NCBI GenBank assembly: GCA_008690995.1
Contig: VRMN01000005.1
Coordinates: 1 to 64,000 of the forward strand
DNA: 64,000 nucleotides
Direction: 5' to 3'
Source of the DNA: Porphyridium purpureum
Lineage: Eukaryota
A model generated the notes under the pieces. The model searched no databases. It was given only the letters and a program-made list of their open reading frames with translations, and was not told where the DNA came from. The first letter of the stretch is position 1. Each line of letters begins with the position of its first letter. The position numbers and the translations under genes were made by a program. Positions 18,961-30,477 of the stretch are shown here, piece by piece.

Positions 18961-19350
18961 CCGGAAATGTACAATTCATGGTGTTAAATCAAACTTGATG
19001 TATACATACACTCTGCTCACCTGGACCATTGCTTACAAAGCAGACAGCGGCAGGGTGCCACGCGCGTGGCTGGCGGCCTGCCTGAGCGGCGTATGGCCAC
19101 TGCATCCTGCGTTGGTGTCCAGAACGCGCGCGATCAAACCAAAAAATGCGCGCGGTCCGTCCTCATCAGCGATTACTCCTGCGCGAAGATCGTCCGTTCA
19201 GGCTCAAGGCCTAGGAGGCATCGAGCCTTCCATGGAGACACACGAGCTGCTGCTGCATGCCTGAAGTGCGTCTTGTCGGCGCACGAGCGCCCAGAAGAGT
19301 GCCCTTGTTCTTCTTCCTCGGTGCTCGCGCGTGTGTGCGCGCGCCGCAAA

Positions 19351-19652
19351 CGTGGAAAGTTGCCCGTCCCACTCGTCGATGGGCGTGCGGAAGGGCGAGT
19401 GCGAACGTACCGGGACGTCGTGACGGGGATTCAGCGGGTGTAATGCGATGTGACTCGACTAGCGTCCCGCCGGATGCCGATGTGACGTGACTCGATGTGG
19501 TCAGATTGCATCAACAAGGACCCGGCGGGCGTCTATATAGTGGGTGCGGTCGCGCAGAGATGGCAGACGGATAAGCCTAGAAGAAAAGAGAGAAGGTAAG
19601 GGAAGGGGAATAGTAAAAGGGTTCTTCGTTGATCGTTAACAGAAAACCCACG
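19351..19652 (+). repeat. 5' LTR of outer element (CGTGG...CCACG)
   Basis: Identical by eye to 29915-30216. TATATA at 19534; 5-bp terminal inverted repeat. Confidence 0.97.
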
Positions 19653-19669
19653 TGGTATCATCGCCGGTT
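19653..19669 (+). other. Primer-binding site (tRNA-iMet type) of outer element
   Basis: TGGTATCATCGCCGGTT immediately after the LTR. TGGTATCA is complementary to the 3' end of eukaryotic initiator tRNA-Met. Confidence 0.85.
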
Positions 19670-19712
19670 CGGCGGGTGAGGAGCGGTAGTCTCTGGTGCG
19701 GGGCCTGTCGGG

Positions 19713-20453
19713 ATGGACGAGGAGACGGGGCCAGTTGTGAGGCCGGCGCGGCTCAGCCAGTTCGCGGGGCAGCGGAACCAGCGAGTGGTGATGAACTGGT
19801 TGTTCGAAGTGGAGACGAAGGTTCTGCCGTTCGCCAGCTCTGAGCGCGAAGGAGTCAACGTAGCCATGAGCTACTTGACGGATACTGCATTGCAGTGGTT
19901 GCGTGGCCTGCCGGTCCGTCCAGAGAATTGGGCCGGGTTTCGAACGGTGTTTATGGAACAGTTCTTGCCGGCGGACTACAAGCGTCGCGCGCGAGATGCG
20001 CTGCATGGATGGCGCCAGACGAGGGGCGTAGCGGTGTACGCGGCCGAGTTCAGGGACCTGGTCCTAGCGTGTGAGGACGTGGGTGCCGCGGAGGCGTTGG
20101 ACAAGTTCACGCGTGGACTTAAGCCCGCCATAGCGTTCGAAGTTATGAAGGAGAATCCAAGTAGCCTCGATGAGGCCTGCCGAGTTGCCCTTTGCGCGGA
20201 GGACGCATTCGTGGCGGCGCGTCGCGGTTCGCCATCATCCCAGGGTCTTGGGATCCACCATCGCTCAGGCCCGACGCGCGCTTTCGACGTGCCGTATGGA
20301 GAGAGCTCGGCACCAATGGAAATCGGGGCGCAGGCTATGGAGGTAACCTGTTACAACTGCGAGGAACGCGGGCACTTTGCGCGAGACTGCCCCAAGCCGC
20401 ACCGCGCGCGAGCGCAGGCGCAGCCGGGAAAAGGCGCCCCGCGCCGAGACTAG
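19713..20453 (+). CDS. gag: Gag of outer element (Ty3/Gypsy Retrotrans_gag type with PMEIG motif and CCHC knuckle)
   Basis: W..F...F...F, RRARD.L..RQ, KFTRGLKP, APMEIG, CYNCEERGHFARDC. Confidence 0.93.
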   Translation: MDEETGPVVRPARLSQFAGQRNQRVVMNWLFEVETKVLPFASSEREGVNVAMSYLTDTALQWLRGLPVRPENWAGFRTVFMEQFLPADYKRRARDALHGWRQTRGVAVYAAEFRDLVLACEDVGAAEALDKFTRGLKPAIAFEVMKENPSSLDEACRVALCAEDAFVAARRGSPSSQGLGIHHRSGPTRAFDVPYGESSAPMEIGAQAMEVTCYNCEERGHFARDCPKPHRARAQAQPGKGAPRRD

Positions 20454-20471
20454 GGCAGGTGTCGGCGCGGG
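20426..20471 (+). other. -1 programmed ribosomal frameshift signal (outer element)
   Basis: G_GGA_AAA heptamer in gag frame (20426-20432), 5-nt spacer, perfect 10-bp stem CCCGCGCCGA (20438-20447) / TCGGCGCGGG (20462-20471). pol is in the -1 frame. Confidence 0.85.
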
Positions 20472-23335
20472 AGCCGTCAGAACTTCTGACGTTGCACGTT
20501 CGCTTCTGCGGGAAACGTGCGATGGCAATCGTAGACTGTGGCGCCACACATGTCTTTGTGGATAAGGCATGGGTGCGCCATTCAGGGTTATTATCATTTT
20601 GCGAAGCGACACCGGGACTTCAGGCCGTCCTTGCCGACGGGCGCAAGACTAATGTTGTCGGGAGCCTTCTCGGTCATTTGGAGCTGAACGGCATCGGGTC
20701 ACGTCGCTGCCGTGCGATTGTATGTCCGGCACTGATGACCGACCTCGTCATCGGTATGGAGTTCCTGACGCGTACTGGGATGGTCATTGATTACGAGGAC
20801 GGGAGCATTTTCATGCGTAAGCGGGAAGATATGAACTTGAAAAGGGACAAGGAGCAGAACGGGAGCGCAGGGCGCACGAGCGGAGGAACGGCTGGGCCGG
20901 GCAGAGAGCAGAACGAGAGCGCAGGGCGCACGAGCGGAGGAACGGCTGGGCCGGGCAGAGAGCAGAACGGGAGCGCAGGGCGCACGAGCGGACGAACGGC
21001 TGGGCCGGGCAGAGAGCAGAACGGGAGCGCAGGGCACGTGGAAGCAAGCTCTGTCAATCCGCAGCCGCGAAATCAAGGACGGAGCGCGGGGCGCTCGAGC
21101 GTACATGTGGACGGGCCATGCGTGAACCGAGACACAAGCGCGGGGCGCGTGCATGAAAAGAACGTCGGAAAGTCATCAGGGCTGAGCGATGAAGAGAGCG
21201 CGGGGAGCTCCAACGCATGCTCGACAGGAGCGAACGGTTACGAGAACGGGAATATGAGCCCGGAGCGCGTAGATTGCGAAACAGATAGGCCGAACATGGG
21301 GGCGAATGTCGAGGTCCATTCGAACCAAGCATGCAAAGGCACCCCGTTGGCGAAGTCGGCTGAGTGCCGCGAAACGGAGGTACGGACGCGAGGAAGGGAC
21401 CAAGTGATGGGCAAAACGAAGGCGAGGAGCAACACGGACCCTGCGCAAGACTCGCTAGTCAGGAGTAAAATCGGGTCGCGGCATGGCGGCAGTGCGTTGA
21501 AGGAAACCGCATACCCTTCCGGAGACTGTAGCCTGATCCCAGAACCTGATTCGCCGGGGGAGGCACAAACCGGCGACATAGCGTCAAGTTCAAGCGACGA
21601 TGGAGCGCCAAATGCGATACGAGGTATTCGACGCGCAATGACATGGGTCGATCGTCTCGCCCTTGGCACCACAGTTTCAAATGTGCCCGACGGACACGCG
21701 CTCCTGCACATGCCTGCTCGCACGTCGTGCGAGGTTTGTACAAGGGCGAAGCTGAAAATGCGGCCGTCTTACCGAATTGATGTCGACGCGCACGCGCGAG
21801 CACCTGGGGTCGCTGCACGCTTTGACGAAGAAATAGGGGTGGACCTGGTCGACGCCGGCGCCAAGGTCCGTTCGCGGGAAGGATATCGATACATCCTGAC
21901 ACATGTCGACGAGCACACGGGGTGGATAGAAGTCGCGGGAGTCGTCGATAAGACTGCCCTGGCCTGCCGCGAGGCGCTTGTCGAGTGCCAAGCTGGGAGA
22001 GATTGGCCGAAACGGATGCGCACAGATTCGGGCAGCGAGTTTAGGGGCGCGTTCGCGCGCGTTCTGCGCGAGAGGAACGTTGAACATACCCTCTGCATCC
22101 CTCATAGACCGAACGGACACGCGCGACTGGAAAGACTGCACCACACGTTGAATGCCGTCATTCGTTGCCTCTTATGGCAATCGGGTTTGCACGTCGTCTG
22201 GTTTTTCAGAGCAGCCAAATTCTTCGCGTTCTGGTACAATCGGGTGCACCTGGGTAGGGACGGACTAACTCCCTTTGAGCGCAGATACGGACAGGGATGG
22301 GTCGAGAGCGGCAAGCCATGGCTGATGGCTCCATTCGGATCGCGGGTGGTCTATAAAGTGGACGACGTAGCCAACAAGTTCGCTCCTACCACGCGCGAGG
22401 GAGTGGTCGTCGGGGCTCGGGACCACCCCGCCGCCCTCGAAGTTCTCGAGACAGGGTCTGGAGCGACGACGTGGACAAGAGATTTCAGAGTATTCAAAGA
22501 CTTCACCATGCGCGTGCCGGGCGCAGAACCGCTCGCAGAAATGGAAAAGGTGATCGCGTACGATCCGGACGGGGATTTGGCAGTCGCACAGCGCGACAAC
22601 GTCGCGTCGGAAGAGACGGGAATCAAAGCGAGGGTTGAAGCAATCACGGAACGCCTGAAGGCCATCGACGAGCGGGAAAAGCAGCTAAGCCAGGAGGTCG
22701 CGGCGCGGCGGGCGGCTAAGGAGGGCAAAGAAATCAGGCGTACAAAGAAGAACGCCCGTCGCTCGGCCCGAATAGCGGCGCGCTTTCCTTCCGTGACCAT
22801 AAATGTTACCAGGGTAATGAGCAGACGAGAAGCCACCACGGATGGAAGGGCAGCTGAGGCCATTGAGAATGAGCTCGGGCAAATGCGGCGCTTCGGCGTG
22901 TGGGATCCGGAACCGGTCACTCTGAACTCCATTACCGAGGGACTTATTGTAAGGGCGCACATGGTGGTAGCCGAAAAGCACACGGAGCGTCCTGTTGAGG
23001 AGCGCAAGATCAAGGCAAGGCTCGTGGCCGGGGGGGATCGCATTACGGACATGACGGGGGTCCCAGTGTCTCTTACCGTTCCCTACGAGGCGCCGGCATC
23101 TTTAGCTGCGCTAAGGATCGTGCTGGCGTGGGCGCAGATGAACGAATTAGAAGTGGGCTTTGTTGACATCACCAGCGCCTACCTGCAGGCCGAGTGCAGC
23201 GGGGGACCGGTGTATGTAATCCTTCCCAGCGAGGCAGGCGGGAAGACGGGCACCGCCCATCATCTCCGCAAGGCAATGTACGGATTACCGAGAGCGGGAG
23301 CGGACTTCGCGCGCGAAGCTCGTAGTCGCTTGTTG
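20432..23335 (+). CDS. pol: Outer element Pol, 5' part: protease, repeat-rich linker, integrase, N-terminal half of Copia-type RT
   Basis: PR IVDCGATH; IN H-x3-H-x6-C-x2-C, VDLVD, TDSGSEF, LERL; RT AIENEL, KARLVAGG, VDITSAYLQ, LRKAMYGL. Broken at 23335 by the insertion. Confidence 0.93.
20852..21035 (+). repeat. In-frame 54-bp tandem repeat, 3.4 copies (EQNGSAGRTSGGTAGPGR)
   Basis: Units start at 20852, 20906, 20960 and 21014 (partial). Confidence 0.95.
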
Positions 23336-23628
23336 TGTTATCCGTTCGACCCCAGTCACCTAGAACGGTTCGGTTAATCCGAAACCGGTAAGCCGTTAAA
23401 CCGTCAGACCGTTTAACCGTTTCTAGAAGCTTCTAGAGGTTCCAGAAACTTCTAGACGCGCGCAGAAATGCCAATGGTTTGCATTGTCATTTCTCTTGGC
23501 GCCTTGCTGTCCCTAGCGGAAGTAAGGGTATAAAAAGGCGACGCGCCTGCCCGGACTAGCCGGTCAGGTCTTGCTCGGAGACAGAAGAGGTAAGAAGAAG
23601 CAGAGTAAAAGGCACAGCATTGGTAACA
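23336..23628 (+). repeat. 5' LTR of inner Gypsy
   Basis: Matches 28504-28796 except for two adjacent bases (23404-23405). TATAAAAA at 23529. Confidence 0.97.
23421..23457. promoter_or_regulatory. Two tandem heat-shock elements in Gypsy LTR (second copy at 28589-28625)
   Basis: TTCtaGAAgcTTCtaGAg (23421-23438) and TTCcaGAAacTTCtaGAc (23440-23457) are alternating nGAAn units about 70 bp upstream of the TATA box. Confidence 0.75.
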
Positions 23629-23630
23629 TT

Positions 23631-23647
23631 TGGTATCATCGCTGGTT
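23631..23647 (+). other. Primer-binding site (tRNA-iMet type) of inner Gypsy
   Basis: TGGTATCATCGCTGGTT, 2 nt (TT) after the LTR-terminal CA. Confidence 0.85.
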
Positions 23648-24200
23648 ACCTGGGGTTGCTCTAAGGTTCTCTTAGAGTTTCTCTGGGGTTGCCTGGGTGG
23701 GAGAGTCTGCGGGTAAGGGGGTTCGAGTAAGTCGATCCGGAGGGTGCGACGGGTGGAAGCGGGTCTCAGTCTTGGCTGTACGATAGGCCTAGGCCTTGAC
23801 GGCGGACTCGCTCTCTGCCTTAGCACGTATTAGTAGGCAAGAGCCGTAACGGTCAGCCTTCACTAGGATTCATCCTAGTGTCGCACGACCACCTTTGCGA
23901 AGGTAGGCGCCGAACACCTCCATATAAGATCGCATCTATAATCCCCGCCCCAGTGCAAAGGCCCGGGCCGCTCCCCATCCAGCGCAACAGAGGAGGATTG
24001 CTGTGTGCTTTGTTGTGTGTGCGTGAGAAGATTGCTGTGCGTGTGTGTGTGCGTGAGAGGACAGCTTCGTGTGTCGGTTTGTGTTCGTGAGGGCGACCGA
24101 GCCCGTTCGTGGTGCGCGCAGCTGTTGGAGAAAGTGAGCATCGGAGGCTTGCTGTTCGTGTCGTTATTGTGATCGGTGAGCGTGCTTTAGTCCAGAAAGC

Positions 24201-25007
24201 ATGGAGATTGATTCGGAGACGCTGGGACCACGTGGCCCGAAGGAGGCCCGTCTGATGAGGTTCGACGGGAAGCGTGACCTTCTGGTTGTGAAGACGTGGT
24301 TGTTCCAGGCGAGAAAGAAGATCTTGGGCCGGTTGTTGGAGAGCATCCACCCGGACGATTTGGAGAAACGTCTGCTTGCGGAGAGGCGTGCTGTGGACTT
24401 GGCTTCTGACTATTTCGAGGGAGAGGCGCTTCATTGGTGGGTTCTAAACTGCGAACGCTACCCGCAGGAGATCCCCACGACGTGGAATGATTTTGCTGCC
24501 CTCGTGAGTGCTCGGTTCACGCCGCAGGATTCGATCAGGCGTGCAAGGGACAAGTTGACGCGTCTTTCGCAGAAAGGCCCGGCCCATGCGTATGTGGCGG
24601 CTTTTCAGGACGCGGCACTTGTGATTCCGGACTTGTCGGACGCAGAAATGATGGACCGCTTTGTGAGGGGTCTGAAGCCCGAGGTCCGCTTGGAAGTTTA
24701 CAAGCGAGGAGTGAGTACGTTTGCGGAGGCTGCGCAGGTGGCGGTGGTCGTGGATGACGCCATTCATGCGACTCGCGGCGTGCGTGATTCAAGTGTGAGG
24801 ACGCCATTTTTCGGTCGCGCAGCGCAGGAAGGACCTGTCCCGATGGAGCTGGGACATGTGCAGGGTCAGAGGCGTGTTCGAAGCGAGCTCAAATGCTGGA
24901 ATTGTGGAAAGCCGGGACACATCGCCAGGAAGTGTCCCGAGGCAAGGAAGACTATCCAGCAGCTGGAGGGAGACTCGCTGGAGTCAAAAAACGAGGAGCT
25001 CGAGTAG
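24201..25007 (+). CDS. gag: Gag of inner Gypsy
   Basis: A..WW, TWNDF, RRARDKL..L.Q, RFVRGLKP, PVPMELG, CWNCGKPGHIARKC. Confidence 0.95.
   Translation: MEIDSETLGPRGPKEARLMRFDGKRDLLVVKTWLFQARKKILGRLLESIHPDDLEKRLLAERRAVDLASDYFEGEALHWWVLNCERYPQEIPTTWNDFAALVSARFTPQDSIRRARDKLTRLSQKGPAHAYVAAFQDAALVIPDLSDAEMMDRFVRGLKPEVRLEVYKRGVSTFAEAAQVAVVVDDAIHATRGVRDSSVRTPFFGRAAQEGPVPMELGHVQGQRRVRSELKCWNCGKPGHIARKCPEARKTIQQLEGDSLESKNEELE
24986..24992 (+). other. -1 frameshift slippery site A_AAA_AAC (inner Gypsy)
   Basis: Canonical heptamer in gag frame just before the gag stop; pol is in the -1 frame; a short GAGGAGC/GTTCCTC hairpin follows. Confidence 0.8.
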
Positions 25008-28000
25008 AGAGGTTCCTCGGACAGTCAGAGGGAAAGGAGGCTCGCAGGCGTTACGAGACCTCTAGGGGCGGCAATGAAGACCGCTGTGGTGGCCTTGGTA
25101 AGCCAAGGTCTGGCTGTCCGACACCTTGTGGGCGAAACTCGAGCGCCAATCAGCCCGTGATCAAGGAACTTGGAGGGATGGGAGCTGCCATGCTTCTTCG
25201 AGTTCGAGGAAAAGTGCACAAGTCCGACGGAGAGGCCACGTTTTTGATTGACAGTGGCGCGACGGACAACTTTATGAGCGTGGACTTTGTGCTGAAATCC
25301 GACGGCCTGAAGCAGAAGGCGTCGTGGAAGAGAGATCATGTGACCCTAGCGGATGGGTCTGTATTGGAAACAGCCGGAGAGGTCTCCAATGTCAAGTTTG
25401 AACTGAGCGATGGGTACTCAGGGGCCGCTAACTTTGCCATTTGCCGGATTGCGGGACAAGACGCAATTCTGGGCATGGAGTGGCTGAAGCGGGAGAACCC
25501 AGTGATTGATTGGCAGTCTGGCATGTTGGCCTACGGAGAGAAGAAGGCCTGGAGCATGACGCAGATGCTGGTGCCGCGGAAAGAGCTCCGTCGGCTGTTG
25601 AAGAGTCAGGAGGTAGAAGAGTGCTACCTCGGCGTGCTGAAAGGAAGGGAGGAGCCCTGTTCAGTGGAGCGCAAAGACGCTGACTCTGTGAGAAAGATGC
25701 TCAAGGATTTCGAAAATCTGTTCGAGGAGCCACGAGGGCTGCCTGAGAGCCGAACAGTGGAGCATGTGATTAGGCTGAAAGATGAGAAGCCTGTGAGAGT
25801 GGGCAGGGTCTACCGACTGAGCCCTGCGGAGTTGAAAGTCCTCCGAGAGACTTTGGATGACTTGCTGGACAAAGGATTCGTCCAGCCGAGTCAGAGCCCG
25901 TTTGGAGCACCCGTGCTGTTCGTGAAGAAGAAAGACGGCAGCATGAGGATGTGCGTCGATTATCGGGCGTTGAACGACGCAACTGTGAAGGACCGGTATC
26001 CGTTGCCGAACATGGATGAGTTGCTGGATCGACTGGGCGCAGCTCACTGTTTTTCAAAGTTGGATTTGGCATCGGGATACCACCAGTTGCGTGTTCGGGG
26101 AGAGGATGTGCCGAAGACCGCGTTCCAGACCAGGTACGGACAGTTCGAGTTCCGTGTGATGCCGTTTGGTCTTTGCAACGCGCCGGCAACTTTTCAGAGG
26201 GCCATGAACGAGCTGTTTGCAGATCTGCTGGACAAGACCGTCATTGTCTACTTGGACGATATTTTGGTCTTCACCAAGGATAGGCAGTCGCACAGCGAGG
26301 CCCTCAAGGAAGTGTTGTCGCGCTTGCAAAAGGCAGGGTATCGTTTGAAGCGCAAGAAATGCAGCTTCTTCGTTTCTGAAGTCGAATACCTGGGAAACAT
26401 TGTCGGTAACGGTTGTGTGAAGATGGATCCACGGAAGGTGGAAGCTTTGAAAGATTGGCCAGTGCCAAAGACGGTGACGGAGTTGAGATCCTTTTTGGGA
26501 ATGACAAACTGGTTTCGCAGGTTTGCCAAAGGATACTCTACCGTCGTGGCGCCGCTGACTTCGCTGTTGCAGAACGCAAAGTCGAAGAAGCAGCTGATCG
26601 AACTGGGAGATGAAGGCAAGTCGGCCTTCAAGAAGATTGTGGGGATGTTGACGGAAGCGCCGGTGTTGGCTTTGCCAGACCCTGAAAAGCCATTCGAGGT
26701 GTACACAGACCGCTCCGAAGTCGCGGTGGGGGGATGGCTGGCACAGGAAGGCAGACCGGTCGCGTTTACGTCAAGGAAGCTGCTGGACCGAGAGACCAGG
26801 TACAGCAGCTATGAAGGTGAGCTCATGGCCGTCATTCACTGTCTGCGAGAGTTTCGACCTTATCTGTACGGAGCACAGTTTGTGCTTCATACAGATCATG
26901 AGGCGTTGAAACATTTGATGACGCAGAAGGAGCTGAATGGCCGGCAAGCACGGTGGCTGGACTTTTTAGCCGAGTTTGACATCACGATCGACTATGTGAA
27001 GGGAAAGTCGAACGTGGTAGCCGATGCTTTGTCGAGGAAGCCAGAGTTACATGCGCTAGAGTACCAAGTTCGGTGTGATGAATTTGGTGCGGGTTTCCAG
27101 GCATTCGTGGGTTCGTACTCGAGTGACCCAGACTTTGGTACTTTGATGGGTGACTTACCGACCCACCAGGGTTTTCGAACCGAAGCTGGGCTCTTGTACT
27201 TGAGGAATCGCGTTTGCGTGCCGAGGAAGTTCAGAGAGCGTGTCATGCAGCTCCACCACGATATCCCGACAGCAGGACACCGTGGAGCCGACACGACGTA
27301 TGCATCTTTGATCACTCGCTTCTACTGGCCAAAGATGAAGCGAGACGTGAGCCGTTTTGTGAAGACTTGTCACGCATGCCAAGTGACAAAGTCAGAGAAT
27401 CGGTCGTTTGGAAAGCTGAAGCCCTTGTCGATCCCAGAAGGACCTTGGGTCGACATTTCGATGGACTTTGTGACGGAGCTGCCTCGGAGCGAAGGCAGCT
27501 GTGATGCAATTATGACTGTGGTGGATCGCTATTCGAAGATTGCGCTGTTCATCCCGACGCGCAAGGACTTGACAGCAAAGCGTTGTGCTGACTTGTTCGT
27601 GAAGCACGTCGTGAGCCGTTTCGGATACCCCAAGTCAATTGTATCGGACCGAGATCCGCTGTTTACGTCCACGTTTTGGCAGCAGTTGAGCAAGCGGGTG
27701 GGCATGAAGTTGGCTATGTCTACCGCCAACCACCCGCAGACAGATGGCCAAACTGAGCGAGTGAACCGCGTGATTCGGGAAATGCTCAAGTTGATGGCGA
27801 CGAATAGTGGCTGGGTGCGAGACTTGCCGTTGTACGAGTTTGCGTACAACTCTGCACCAAGCAGTGCCACTGGATTCGCGCCGTTCAAAGTGGTATATGG
27901 AAGGGATCCTTGGTTTCCACCGAGCGAAGGGTGGAGGCCTGCGCGCGACGGACAGACAAAGGACATGGCGGAGCACTGGTTTCGCCTGTGCAAAGTCCAT

Positions 28001-28384
28001 GAAGAAGTCCGCGACAATTTGATCGAAGCCCAGGGGAGAATGCAGAAGTTCTTCGATCGACGCAAGGATGCCCGGGAGTTTCAAGTTGGTGATCAAGTGT
28101 TGATCACGGCGCCGCAATTGCGGCCGAACAAGAGTGATTTGGCGGCACCAAAGTTTCTTGGTCCGGTGCCTGTCATTGAGAAGGTAAGCTCGCATGCTTA
28201 CCGAGTGATTTTGCCCGAGGGTGTGGCTTGTCATGATGTTTTTCCGATCCAACATCTGAAGCCATACTATGGACGCGAAGACTACATGGCAGGGGAAAAT
28301 GATGAAGAAGTACCCGACGACCTGCCAACGTCCGATTCTGAGCCAGACTTGTTGAAAATTATCGAAGAGTCTGACTCTGAATGA
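24986..28384 (+). CDS. pol: Pol of inner Gypsy: protease, RT, RNase H, integrase (no chromodomain)
   Basis: LIDSGAT; SPFGAPVLFVKKKDGSMRMCVDYRALN, MPFGL.NAP, YLDD; VYTD.S, ELMA, TDH, N.VADALSR; HHCC, DFV/SDRD/QTDGQTER, GP(Y/F)-like motif. Uninterrupted ORF. Confidence 0.97.
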   Translation, partial: KKRGARVERFLGQSEGKEARRRYETSRGGNEDRCGGLGKPRSGCPTPCGRNSSANQPVIKELGGMGAAMLLRVRGKVHKSDGEATFLIDSGATDNFMSVDFVLKSDGLKQKASWKRDHVTLADGSVLETAGEVSNVKFELSDGYSGAANFAICRIAGQDAILGMEWLKRENPVIDWQSGMLAYGEKKAWSMTQMLVPRKELRRLLKSQEVEECYLGVLKGREEPCSVERKDADSVRKMLKDFENLFEEPRGLPESRTVEHVIRLKDEKPVRVGRVYRLSPAELKVLRETLDDLLDKGFVQPSQSPFGAPVLFVKKKDGSMRMCVDYRALNDATVKDRYPLPNMDELLDRLGAAHCFSKLDLASGYHQLRVRGEDVPKTAFQTRYGQFEFRVMPFGLCNAPATFQRAMNELFADLLDKTVIVYLDDILVFTKDRQSHSEALKEVLSRLQKAGYRLKRKKCSFFVSEVEYLGNIVGNGCVKMDPRKVEALKDWPVPKTVTELRSFLGMTNWFRRFAKGYSTVVAPLTSLLQNAKSKKQLIELGDEGKSAFKKIVGMLTEAPVLALPDPEKPFEVYTDRSEVAVGGWLAQEGRPVAFTSRKLLDRETRYSSYEGELMAVIHCLREFRPYLYGAQFVLHTDHEALKHLMTQKELNGRQARWLDFLAEFDITIDYVKGKSNVVADALSRKPELHALEYQVRCDEFGAGFQAFVGSYSSDPDFGTLMGDLPTHQGFRTEAGLLYLRNRVCVPRKFRERVMQLHHDIPTAGHRGADTTYASLITRFYWPKMKRDVSRFVKTCHACQVTKSENRSFGKLKPLSIPEGPWVDISMDFVTELPRSEGSCDAIMTVVDRYSKIALFIPTRKDLTAKRCADLFVKHVVSRFGYPKSIVSDRDPLFTSTFWQQLSKRVGMKLAMSTANHPQTDGQTERVNRVIREMLKLMATNSGWVRDLPLYEFAYNSAPSSATGFAPFKVVYGRDPWFPPSEGWRPARDGQTKDMAEHWFRLCKVHEEVRDNLIEAQGRMQKFFDRRKDAREFQVGDQVLITAPQLRPNKSDLAAPKFLGPVPVIEKVSSHAYRVILPEGVACHDVFPIQHLKPYYGREDYMAGENDEEVPDDLPTSDSEPDLLKIIEESDSE

Positions 28385-28489
28385 CTTGGGAATTGTGAGA
28401 AGTTTGCTAGGCAGAGGTTTTCTCCCGGAGCGCGGGTTCCTCGAGCCAAGAATGCAACTTAGTTTGAAGTCTCGCCGAGACGTCGAGCC

Positions 28490-28503
28490 AAGAGGGGGGG
28501 AGA
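28490..28503 (+). other. Polypurine tract of inner Gypsy
   Basis: AAGAGGGGGGGAGA directly before the 3' LTR. Confidence 0.92.
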
Positions 28504-28796
28504 TGTTATCCGTTCGACCCCAGTCACCTAGAACGGTTCGGTTAATCCGAAACCGGTAAGCCGTTAAACCGGTAGACCGTTTAACCGTTTCTAGAAGCTT
28601 CTAGAGGTTCCAGAAACTTCTAGACGCGCGCAGAAATGCCAATGGTTTGCATTGTCATTTCTCTTGGCGCCTTGCTGTCCCTAGCGGAAGTAAGGGTATA
28701 AAAAGGCGACGCGCCTGCCCGGACTAGCCGGTCAGGTCTTGCTCGGAGACAGAAGAGGTAAGAAGAAGCAGAGTAAAAGGCACAGCATTGGTAACA
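28504..28796 (+). repeat. 3' LTR of inner Gypsy
   Basis: Direct repeat of 23336-23628, followed by TSD TGTTG. Confidence 0.97.
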
Positions 28797-28801
28797 TGTT
28801 G

Positions 28802-30007
28802 CGTCTCGGATGGGTGGAGGTCACAGCAGGAGTGTATATCCGTAGAAGCCTCGAGGGGAACGCGGCAGGACTCGTCTTGGTAATGTACGTTGACGACGTG
28901 GTCTTAGCGGGGCGGAAAGACGAGGCACGGAATGCCATGAGTGAGTTATATCAAGAATTCGTGATCGACGAGCAACCGCAGTGGCTCGGCGAGAGCCCGG
29001 TCCTTCACCTTGGCATGCGGATTTCCAGAACGAACGGAAGGGTAAAGATTGATGGTACGGACTACGCAAAGACCATTATAGATGAGTACGAGCGCGACTC
29101 GACTGTGAGGACGAGGGGCACGCGCGATGCGGCAACCCCCATGGTATTTCCAGAGGCGGCGCTCTACGACGAAGCGGAAGTCAGTACGACTTGCCGGCAA
29201 CACGTCGGACGCCTAATGTGGCTCGCACGCACGGTAAAGCCCGAAATAGCATACTCGGTCGCATATGTCTCGCGCTTTGTGGACAAGTGGAGCAAGGCAG
29301 CATCGGCGATTCTCGACCGAATCGTGCGGTACGTGCACGGGAGCCAGGATAGTGTCTTGGAATACGGCAGCGCGGGGCGCCTGGGAGATCAGGTACGAAT
29401 AGTCGCCTTTTCAGATAGCGACCATGCAGGCTGTCCCGCGACGCGGCGGTCAACTTCCGGCGGTTGCGTATACTTCTCAAACGGAGAAGAGAACTACTTG
29501 GTAGATTGGTTTTCGAAAGCACAACGGGCCTCGGTATTATCCACCGCGGAGGCGGAACTCACCGCCCTTGGCAGGATCATGCGAACTACGATTCCTAACG
29601 CCGAAGTTGTAATCCGAGGGCTCGTTGGAACGCGCGTACCGCTCGCTGTGTGTTGCGACAGCGAAGCAGCGGTGAAGGCCGTTCGACGAGGATACTCCGC
29701 CAAGATGGCAAGTCTCGGGAAGACACACGGCGTCACTGTAGCCACCCTCTCGGACGCTTTTGATGGAGAAGACTCGAACCTCGTGTCTGTCCCCGGAATA
29801 TCGAATTGCGCAGACATCTTCACGAAGCCGATGGAACGAGTGGCATTTACACGTGCTATTGCCAACCTTAGGAAGGGCGCTTCCAACGATCGAGAGCGAG
29901 ACGTGCACGGGGCGCGTGGAAAGTTGCCCGTCCCACTCGTCGATGGGCGTGCGGAAGGGCGAGTGCGAACGTACCGGGACGTCGTGACGGGGATTCAGCG
30001 GGTGTAA
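28802..30007 (+). CDS. pol: Outer element Pol, 3' part: C-terminal half of Copia-type RT and Ty1/Copia RNase H
   Basis: LVMYVDDVV, VGRLMWLA...KPEIAYSV, FSDSDHAG....RRSTSG, STAEAE, CDSEAA, NCADIFTKP. Same frame as the 5' part. Confidence 0.95.
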   Translation, partial: RLGWVEVTAGVYIRRSLEGNAAGLVLVMYVDDVVLAGRKDEARNAMSELYQEFVIDEQPQWLGESPVLHLGMRISRTNGRVKIDGTDYAKTIIDEYERDSTVRTRGTRDAATPMVFPEAALYDEAEVSTTCRQHVGRLMWLARTVKPEIAYSVAYVSRFVDKWSKAASAILDRIVRYVHGSQDSVLEYGSAGRLGDQVRIVAFSDSDHAGCPATRRSTSGGCVYFSNGEENYLVDWFSKAQRASVLSTAEAELTALGRIMRTTIPNAEVVIRGLVGTRVPLAVCCDSEAAVKAVRRGYSAKMASLGKTHGVTVATLSDAFDGEDSNLVSVPGISNCADIFTKPMERVAFTRAIANLRKGASNDRERDVHGARGKLPVPLVDGRAEGRVRTYRDVVTGIQRV

Positions 30008-30216
30008 TGCGATGTGACTCGACTAGCGTCCCGCCGGATGCCGATGTGACGTGACTCGATGTGGTCAGATTGCATCAACAAGGACCCGGCGGGCGTCTAT
30101 ATAGTGGGTGCGGTCGCGCAGAGATGGCAGACGGATAAGCCTAGAAGAAAAGAGAGAAGGTAAGGGAAGGGGAATAGTAAAAGGGTTCTTCGTTGATCGT
30201 TAACAGAAAACCCACG
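29915..30216 (+). repeat. 3' LTR of outer element
   Basis: Identical to 19351-19652 and followed by TSD GCAAA. Confidence 0.97.
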
Positions 30217-30477
30217 GCAAATGCATCTGCGCTGTACACCCGTGCGTGTACAGCACCACTGTACTCACATCGAGTGCGCGTGTCATCTTTTGACGCCACG
30301 CGGCAGCGTGCAATGCACATCTCTTTGTCATCATTCTGAATTCGGGTCGCGTGTGGAAGTTGGGAGATTGTGGTTGGATCTGCGCTGACAAAGCGTGTAG
30401 CCGCACACGGGACTGGCAGGTTGATCGGAGGGTGGTGGGTGTGTGTGGAGAGGTTAGGAGCGACGTGACAAGGAAAG

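Follow-up and report, generated by a model that had tools for sequence, protein, structure and literature searches.

An LTR retrotransposon of Porphyridium purpureum, lying in the 64,000-nt stretch of contig VRMN01000005.1 that was analysed (the window), combines a Ty3/gypsy-type Gag and protease (PR) with a Copia-type integrase (IN), reverse transcriptase (RT) and RNase H (RH). Copia and Gypsy are regarded as separate lineages, and the LLS/ILG split of their proteases serves as a marker. An earlier note on this DNA had proposed such a chimera, and profiles, trees and fold bear it out. The two-part anatomy, intact sister copies, an empty insertion site and further families of the same build are all observed. 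The reading that we favour, at a probability of roughly 0.78, is that this is a recently inserted copy belonging to one of several such families, which likely go back to an old swap that gave a divergent Copia element the 5' module of a Gypsy sharing its host lineage. The features are as follows, in window coordinates.

19346..19350, no strand: left target-site duplication (TSD) GCAAA; three of four sequencing runs join 19345->30217 directly (empty site; 5 letters ambiguous)
19351..30216, + strand: whole element, split by a nested Gypsy
19351..19652, + strand: 5' LTR, 302 bp, ends 5'-CG...CG-3', inverted CGTGG/CCACG
19653..19669, + strand: primer-binding site, directly adjoining the 5' LTR
19713..20453, + strand: Gag, 246 aa, Ty3/gypsy-type capsid, PMEIG motif, one CCHC knuckle
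20426..20475, + strand: predicted -1 frameshift signal, heptamer G GGA AAA (20426-20432, gag frame) and stem-loop
20495..20773, + strand: aspartic protease, DCGA...LVIG, ILG type
20845..21035, + strand: 54-bp tandem repeat within the PR-IN linker
21695..22500, + strand: integrase, rve core, end approximate
22870..23335, + strand: N-terminal part of RT, Copia type (KARLVA, DITSAYL, LRKAMYGL), start approximate
23336..28796, + strand: nested Ty3/gypsy, 5461 bp, TSD TGTTG
24201..25007, + strand: gag of the nested Gypsy
28802..30007, + strand: C-terminal part of RT and RNase H, Copia type (YVDD, SDSD..RRSTSG, STAEAE, ADIFTK)
29915..30216, + strand: 3' LTR, 302 bp, same as the 5' LTR
30217..30221, no strand: right TSD GCAAA, duplicate of the left 5 bp; empty site

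The boundaries claimed earlier, identical LTRs and a TSD, hold: the LTRs match at 302 of 302 positions with GCAAA on both sides, and run X1 contains a 302-base contig with exactly the limits of the LTR. TG...CA termini are absent: CG...CG is established by the two LTR copies together with the TSD and the empty site. The purine-rich run upstream of the 3' LTR is short. The implied A1-U72 pair suggests that initiator-Met tRNA is the likely primer; the primer-binding site shares its first 12 bases with that of the nested Gypsy, has one extra C in runs X5 and X14, and finds no tRNA gene for comparison in the 64,000-nt window. gag and pol lie in different frames (-1), a feature absent from the earlier note. 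The stem-loop, whose 10-bp core begins 5 bases downstream of the heptamer, has a predicted energy of -33.7 kcal/mol (z -4.4, 0 of 200 shuffles, for a segment picked after the stem-loop had been seen); that of the nested Gypsy is not significant (z -0.8).

The ORF at 20174-23377 encodes Asp_protease_2/gag-asp_proteas, rve and RVT_2 in that order, and its profile scan returned no Pol_BBD, gag_pre-integrs or RVT_1. The pol order and the RT and RNase H motifs are of Copia type, as first described, and the pol stop codon sits 93 bases within the 3' LTR. Protease and integrase do share one ORF, but a low-complexity linker of 317 residues, peculiar to this element's family and containing the tandem repeat, separates them. 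The Copia-like SH3 tail attributed to the integrase is weak, SH3_retrovirus appearing at E 0.047, under the cutoff, in one near-identical copy (P0004). The nested Gypsy has 293-bp TG...CA LTRs with 2 differences between copies, and its pol, PR-RT-RH-IN in a -1 frame, runs to 28384. The RT of the hybrid resumes in frame downstream of it, and the joint 23330->28797 is uninterrupted, with no nested Gypsy, in 4 of 4 runs. The present copy is disabled in cis by this insertion; intact sister copies exist, and both pol halves are letter for letter those of one intact protein labelled P. purpureum.

The Gypsy affinity of Gag is observed at the level of profile, alignment, fold and tree. Retrotrans_gag (7.7e-14) is above cutoff, Ty3_capsid (3.5e-6) just below it, zf-CCHC is detected, and no Retrotran_gag_2/UBN2 is found at E<=1; neither Retrotrans_gag nor Ty3_capsid is exclusive to Gypsy, as the canonical Copia P0197, likewise without a UBN2-type Gag, exceeds both cutoffs. 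The alignment with the nested Gypsy Gag seen by eye in the earlier note is confirmed at 33% over 265 columns (E 1e-31; score 304, shuffle maximum 56; identity range 33-38%). A profile built from 5 Gags hits dArc1/2 (1e-6) and the Ty3 capsid (1e-3) across the capsid, and aligns the Copia VLP protein at the zinc knuckle only. With an AlphaFold model of Gag, dArc, Arc, Ty3, PNMA2 and PEG10 rank above the Copia capsid (rank 24, E 0.09). All hybrid-type Gags (9/9) score 32-155 bits on the Gypsy profile and <10 on the profiles of canonical Copia or of the sisters, Copia relatives with LLS proteases; the sister Gags, taken from windows of estimated coordinates, score <3 bits on the hybrid profile. 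In the Gag tree, which left out P0193, 7 hybrid Gags group with the nested Gypsy and P0086 (96/93), resident Gypsy Gags falling between this family's Gag and the remaining hybrid Gags. A single hybrid Gag clade gave p-AU 0.025, a weak test because P0120, whose Gag type is uncertain, is excluded by the same constraint. The capsid core of two hybrid families is 36-43% identical to the co-resident Gypsy pair, unrelated Gypsy Gags being 22-32% identical mutually.

The protease behaves similarly. The likeness to the nested Gypsy protease that had been noted holds (28/97 identical, z 14; range 27-29%), and every hybrid protease scored (12/12; P0229/P0230 were left out, their motif not being found) fits the Gypsy profile (15-69 bits) better than it does either of the two Copia profiles. 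The protease tree gives the Gypsy-type split a support of 95 and rejects grouping with the LLS sisters (p-AU 0.014), one of which, P0119, itself reaches 27 bits on the Gypsy profile. A PDB sequence search with the protease returned no match. According to the available part of Llorens et al. 2009 (PMC2774666), LLS is kept by all but very few Copia proteases.

Downstream of the protease the affinity changes. The integrase core scores higher for Copia than for Gypsy and is without Integrase_H2C2 and SH3_Tf2-1. Its finger is a short H-x3-H-x7-C-x2-C, the usual Copia HxRLGH finger being absent, and 34 residues separate the second D from E; both traits are common to the LLS sisters. All 13 hybrid integrases score best on the LLS-sister profile and worst on the Gypsy profile. 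RVT_2 matches intact P0010 at 3.5e-15, RT-RH aligns with canonical Copia P0016 at a z far above shuffles, and comparison with the RT-RH of the nested Gypsy scores 36 against a shuffle mean of 35, no similarity beyond the shuffled level; the hybrid has no RVT_1 RT and no Gypsy RNase H. Shared ancestry cannot account for a Gag identity of 33-38% next to an unalignable RT, as the nested Gypsy/P0086 pair is still 82% identical in RT-RH with capsids at 49%. The RT-RH tree, from which matches covering <75% of the profile and duplicated copies were left out, places the hybrids in a 100/100 clade with 11 LLS sisters, picked for their LLS-type protease regions, and apart from canonical Copia, to which hybrid RT-RH is 28-33% identical. 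The clade of hybrid RT-RH has a support of only 82/74 and takes in P0106/P0109, which have canonical integrases. The tree labels 'dino', 'LLSx' and 'canon' were assigned from motifs; dinoflagellate-type names occur on P0046 and P0051 only, and several 'LLSx' rows of one tree are without a protease region in the sequence covered. The profile scans and separate trees that the earlier note had proposed give Retrotrans_gag and RVT_2 without Retrotran_gag_2 or RVT_1, and a Gag among resident Gypsy elements on an IN-RT-RH among Copia elements with LLS proteases.

Recent movement as a unit, also claimed earlier, is indicated by the empty site in 3 of 4 sequencing runs, where both halves of the hybrid are missing together, and by the exact match to an intact protein. 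In runs X6 and X1 the LTR end is joined to other flanks. The same Gypsy-5'/Copia-3' build is common to at least 7 divergent families labelled P. purpureum; RT-RH is 35-51% identical among those with RT-RH sequence, and the families other than this one have only 23-87 residues between the ILG motif and the integrase finger. Wider searches added little: a word search with IN and the RT N-terminal part found the element itself only among 7994 candidates, and searching longer proteins with a Gag profile yielded 3 matches, two of them plant Gypsy-type records and the third a member of the family; both searches are weak evidence of absence. A metagenome scan gave 3 loci among 227 candidates (the one inspected, L002, is an unrelated Gypsy), and 0 of 84 viral contigs carried the element. 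In a protein cluster atlas the clusters nearest to the hybrid are RVT_2 families, and Retrotrans_gag is absent from all 10 matches listed for P0071.

The most serious competitor of an old swap, though improbable, is that an early Copia branch retained a Ty3-like Gag and ILG protease while other Copia elements changed. Hybrids and Gypsy as a single integrase clade are not rejected (p-AU 0.41, root not fixed, in a tree that left out P0081 and P0216), hybrid RT-RH stands very far from canonical Copia, and one fold is common to all capsids. Against retention, the capsids of two families are closer to co-resident Gypsy than unrelated Gypsy Gags are to one another, and LLS sisters occupy several nodes around the hybrids in the RT-RH tree when canonical Copia and two distant rows serve as the root. 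Convergence of a Copia Gag and protease on Gypsy-like motifs is very unlikely; short proteases are saturated, as the score of P0119 illustrates, but the Gag likeness spans its whole length and includes PMExG, the frameshift layout is shared in this family, and sister Gags barely register on the hybrid profile.

An origin in a single recent recombination of the nested Gypsy family with a Copia element, towards which the earlier note leaned, fares equally poorly. The two share a host, the start of the primer site and -1 frames, and the nested family often inserts into the hybrid family. However, no DNA similarity exists outside the primer-binding site, Gag and protease identities are low, and the shared build of the divergent families refutes this origin unless every one of them arose independently and recently from a donor outside those sampled. 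Misassembly at the PR-IN junction, named earlier as potentially fatal, is the least credible account. No single contig of the runs examined crosses the tandem repeat, short-read contigs break at 20881-21006, and contig depth is lower on the gag-PR side in three runs; yet runs X12 and X5 have roughly even depth on the two sides, the empty site lacks both halves together, the junction is present in many gene models on several contigs, and other families have the short spacing given above.

If an old swap did occur, it most probably arose by template switching on co-packaged RNAs, or else by recombination within a nested insertion such as the present one, with a breakpoint between protease and integrase finger. 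The 5 true Gypsy references were all retrieved by searching with this element, so that naming a Gypsy donor would be biased. The swap between superfamilies was possibly repeated. In the element's cycle, LTR-driven RNA would yield Gag and a Ty3/Arc-like particle, the -1 frameshift would produce Gag-Pol, from which the ILG protease would release IN and RT-RH, and initiator-Met tRNA would prime synthesis. The integrase likely joins untrimmed ends, generating the CG...CG termini and 5-bp duplication, since nothing separates the primer site from the LTR end and both junctions retain the final two bases. More speculatively, and on balance doubtfully, Porphyridium may host a radiation of Gypsy/Copia hybrids in which Gag-protease crossed superfamilies more than once, CG...CG being a Gypsy-style end (CA+2) inserted by a non-trimming Copia integrase; on this view LTR elements could exchange their packaging and enzyme modules, which would no longer count as fixed superfamily traits.

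A recently mobile mix in several families indicates that a Gypsy particle and protease can function with Copia enzymes; therefore, classification by RT only hides half of the element's history. The alga is small and culturable and has both intact copies and insertion polymorphism, so that packaging across superfamilies, frameshifting and the joining of ends are directly testable.

The build was not found in the literature searched. Like Ty1/copia, the hybrid has PR-IN-RT-RH order, an RVT_2 RT, Copia RNase H motifs, a 5-bp TSD and an integrase nearer Copia than Gypsy; it differs in its Ty3-type rather than UBN2-type Gag, its ILG rather than LLS (Pol_BBD) protease, its short finger and 34-residue spacing, not DD35E, without gag_pre-integrs, and its CG...CG ends. 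These ends, CG...CG rather than TG...CA, are newly noted here, and such elements would escape finders requiring TG...CA; the first T of the LTR is described as invariable across 50 plant genomes in the part available of bioRxiv 10.1101/137141. With resident Ty3/gypsy (the nested element, P0086) the hybrid shares capsid-core likeness in two families, ILG protease, -1 layout and primer-site start, but its RT-RH is at shuffle level and its integrase lies upstream, without the Gypsy domains. For PyRE10G, the Pyropia element mentioned in the earlier note, a paper title reportedly claims a gypsy-like integrase, a different module. PyRE10G is assigned to GalEa in the available text of PMC3587641. As excerpted (PMC3587641, PMC5445492), GalEa (PyRE10G, CoPorcru1/2) resembles the hybrid in Copia order, red-algal hosts including Porphyridium, KARLVA/YVDD and a Met-tRNA primer site. 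By the same descriptions, rather than by sequences, GalEa has an HX4HX30CX2C finger, DD35E and TG...CA ends, and the hybrid, with HX3HX7CX2C, 34-residue spacing and CG...CG, is not of GalEa type. Gmr1-like Ty3/gypsy elements, by the sections available (PMC2774666, PMC3587641), likewise join a Gypsy 5' region to an integrase upstream of RT, but Gmr1 is classed as a Gypsy with a moved integrase, whereas IN, RT and RH of the hybrid are all of Copia type. Diatom CoDi-A elements, as partially described in PMC2774666, are Copia elements with a Gypsy-typical feature, a chromodomain; this is a C-terminal add-on, whereas the hybrid differs in its entire Gag-protease module.

The outer element is a real and recently mobile LTR retrotransposon, 5400 bp long without the nested Gypsy and flanked by host genes at 391 and 262 bases. 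The earlier note had described identical LTRs, a target site duplication, a Ty3/gypsy-type Gag and protease (PR), and a Copia-type integrase (IN), reverse transcriptase (RT) and RNase H (RH), all of which are confirmed by LTR comparison, profiles and trees.

Features of the outer element (forward-strand coordinates)
19351-30216: outer element; LTRs of 302 bp, 100% identical; GCAAA on either side
19713-20453: outer gag; matches Retrotrans_gag, Ty3_capsid (slightly below cutoff) and zf-CCHC
20426: G GGA AAA heptamer in the gag frame; stem-loop downstream
23336-28796: nested element inside the outer RT; 5461 bp, TG...CA LTRs, TGTTG duplication

In a domain profile scan, no match to the Copia gag family was detected in outer gag, and pol contained two retropepsin families of the ILG motif type followed by rve and then RVT_2. 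The pol frame is -1 relative to gag, and the heptamer and stem-loop suggest that -1 frameshifting would occur. This frame extends 93 bases into the 3' LTR (29915-30007), 5' of which the purine tract is unusually short. The PR-IN linker (20845-21690) consists of 317 low-complexity residues with a 54-bp tandem repeat, a long linker not present in other hybrid families (23-87 residues).

The two pol halves of the outer element (938 and 401 residues) exactly match the N- and C-terminal parts of P0010, an intact protein record of 1339 residues labelled Porphyridium purpureum whose cluster contains 13 sequences; P0002, with 4 accessions, is an entire gag-pol model. The stretch is present, whole or in part, in 20 of the 24 sequencing runs listed, and contigs from seven different runs were aligned to the window. 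An empty site, a contig joining 19345 to 30217 with 5 ambiguous letters, was observed in three of four runs, and RT was uninterrupted by the nested Gypsy in four of four. In run X1, from which this DNA may derive, the left flank is joined to the LTR, and other flanks also begin at the LTR end. Short-read contigs stop at the 54-bp repeat and therefore no single contig bridges PR and IN. The empty site removes the Gag-PR and IN-RT-RH halves jointly, and the mis-assembly considered at this junction was not borne out.

The two LTR copies, together with the duplication, the empty site and a contig of 302 bases, place the LTR termini at CGTGG...CCACG. The primer site abuts the LTR with zero gap, and in the nested Gypsy CA is followed by two bases and then the primer site. 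The primer site of the window copy (19653-19669) has one C fewer than in runs X5 and X14. The integrase of the outer element would join untrimmed ends, as does that of Ty1. In the LTR_retriever preprint (10.1101/137141), non-canonical LTR ends of seven types are reported across 50 plant genomes, with an invariable first T.

The nested element carries RVT_1, Gypsy RNase H, Integrase_H2C2 and SH3_Tf2-1 and is thus a true Ty3/gypsy. Its family is inserted in the outer-element family at four pol sites (P0010 residues 879, 938, 1067 and 1192), all within RT-RH (P0001, P0004, P0007, P0011, P0013); the insertion at 938 is found on each of two contigs, which differ by 2 residues. As the outer LTRs are identical whereas the nested LTRs have 2 differences, the two elements may have been copied together in their nested state; alternatively, the insertion site may be a hot spot.

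Sequence comparison indicates that the two halves of the hybrid have different kin. Gag matches dArc and Ty3 capsids by profile and by fold, a five-sequence Gypsy profile is preferred by 9 of 9 hybrid-type Gags (two, P0079 and P0141, without pol sequence), and the Gag tree places hybrid Gags in a clade with the Gypsy pair, the nested Gypsy and P0086 (96/93). A Gypsy protease profile is likewise preferred by all 12 hybrid proteases; among the controls, canonical Copia scored 13.5 bits at most, and one of 17 LLS sisters, the Copia-type relatives with the LLS-type protease motif, reached 27 bits. Grouping hybrid proteases with LLS sisters is rejected (p-AU 0.014). In contrast, the LLS-sister profile is preferred by 13 of 13 hybrid integrases, whose spacing is that of LLS sisters, one residue less than canonical, and hybrid RT-RH and LLS-type sisters form one clade separate from canonical Copia (100/100). 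The break thus lies between the protease and the integrase finger.

Shared ancestry is opposed most strongly by the Gypsy pair, in which RT-RH (82% identical) evolves more slowly than capsid (49%), yet the outer element has 36-40% capsid identity to the pair while its RT-RH scores against the nested Gypsy at shuffle level. Counting against a swap, the IN tree is compatible with a root that places hybrids and Gypsy in one clade (p-AU 0.41), the Gypsy reference set is small and was gathered with the outer element as query, and a Ty3-type Gag above the Ty3_capsid and Retrotrans_gag cutoffs is combined with a Copia protease in P0197, whose polyprotein is of canonical Copia type (Pol_BBD, gag_pre-integrs, RVT_2). 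P0197 is a separate mix affecting Gag only. Further module exchange, within Copia, is indicated by P0105, P0106 and P0109, which have canonical Copia-type integrase (P0105 also a Pol_BBD protease), the RT-RH of P0106/P0109 grouping next to hybrids. A large Copia clade (P0069-P0151) has a short H-x3-H-x7-C-x2-C finger and 34-residue D-E spacing, with CCCH fingers in some members (P0119, P0133).

One origin is not rejected for hybrid proteases (p-AU 0.34) or hybrid RT-RH (p-AU 0.81), the latter forming two subclades (96/93, 94/88) joined only at 82/74 with P0106/P0109 among them. A single clade of hybrid Gags is rejected (p-AU 0.025), in a test that also forces out an unclassified Gag, and the outer element and P0217 capsids are 30% identical, each being 36-43% identical to the Gypsy pair. 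Repeated capture of Gag, or return transfer to Gypsy, is possible.

Searching with RT-RH yielded 40 proteins. Apart from the element itself, the top match (38-39%) was another P. purpureum family, in which the short integrase finger of the outer element again follows an ILG protease. A search of 1.84 billion with P0013 listed at least 150 matches, and 71 proteins, mainly long ones from these searches, were scanned with Pfam. Ty3-type Gag, ILG protease, IN and Copia RT occur in a single record in four families (P0002, P0071, P0073, P0218). The zinc knuckle is absent from P0002 and P0218, which are therefore probably gene models across a frameshift, and retained in P0071, which looks like one ORF. 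ILG protease with hybrid-type integrase also occurs in P0054, P0078, P0085, P0093/P0228, P0097, P0099 and P0193. Among 10 matches looked up, the only host labels were Porphyridium; seven were labelled P. purpureum and three are Logan, ENA and JGI records, giving at least seven labelled families with the protease-integrase junction (P0010, P0054, P0069/P0218, P0071, P0073, P0093/P0228, P0099). RT-RH identity is 35-51% among the five of these with RT-RH sequence. The build is shared by a lineage, a radiation of families, and is not a one-off. The closest relative of the outer Gag (46% identical, 100/99), an ENA Gag (P0079, P0227), sits on short contigs without pol sequence and possibly represents a sister family from another host. 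The recombinant proposed in the earlier note is therefore supported in part. The element is a genuine chimera of the two superfamilies and, as the empty site indicates, transposed recently, but it is of old origin and several families share its build.

Llorens et al. 2009 (PMC2774666) tell Copia proteases from all others by LLS versus ILG, a rule with very few exceptions, and CoDi-A and Gmr1 are named there as shortcuts between the families. Within Copia, recombination between lineages was inferred by Neumann et al. 2019 (PMC6317226), who discarded apparent chimeras as likely errors. GalEa is the clade to which PyRE10G and two Porphyridium elements are assigned; its finger, spacing and ends, as described in PMC3587641 and PMC5445492, are unlike those of the outer element. 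Nothing on a Gypsy Gag-protease and Copia pol build came from PMC2806351 or PMC2836005, nor was such a build found described in the openly accessible literature searched, Repbase apart.
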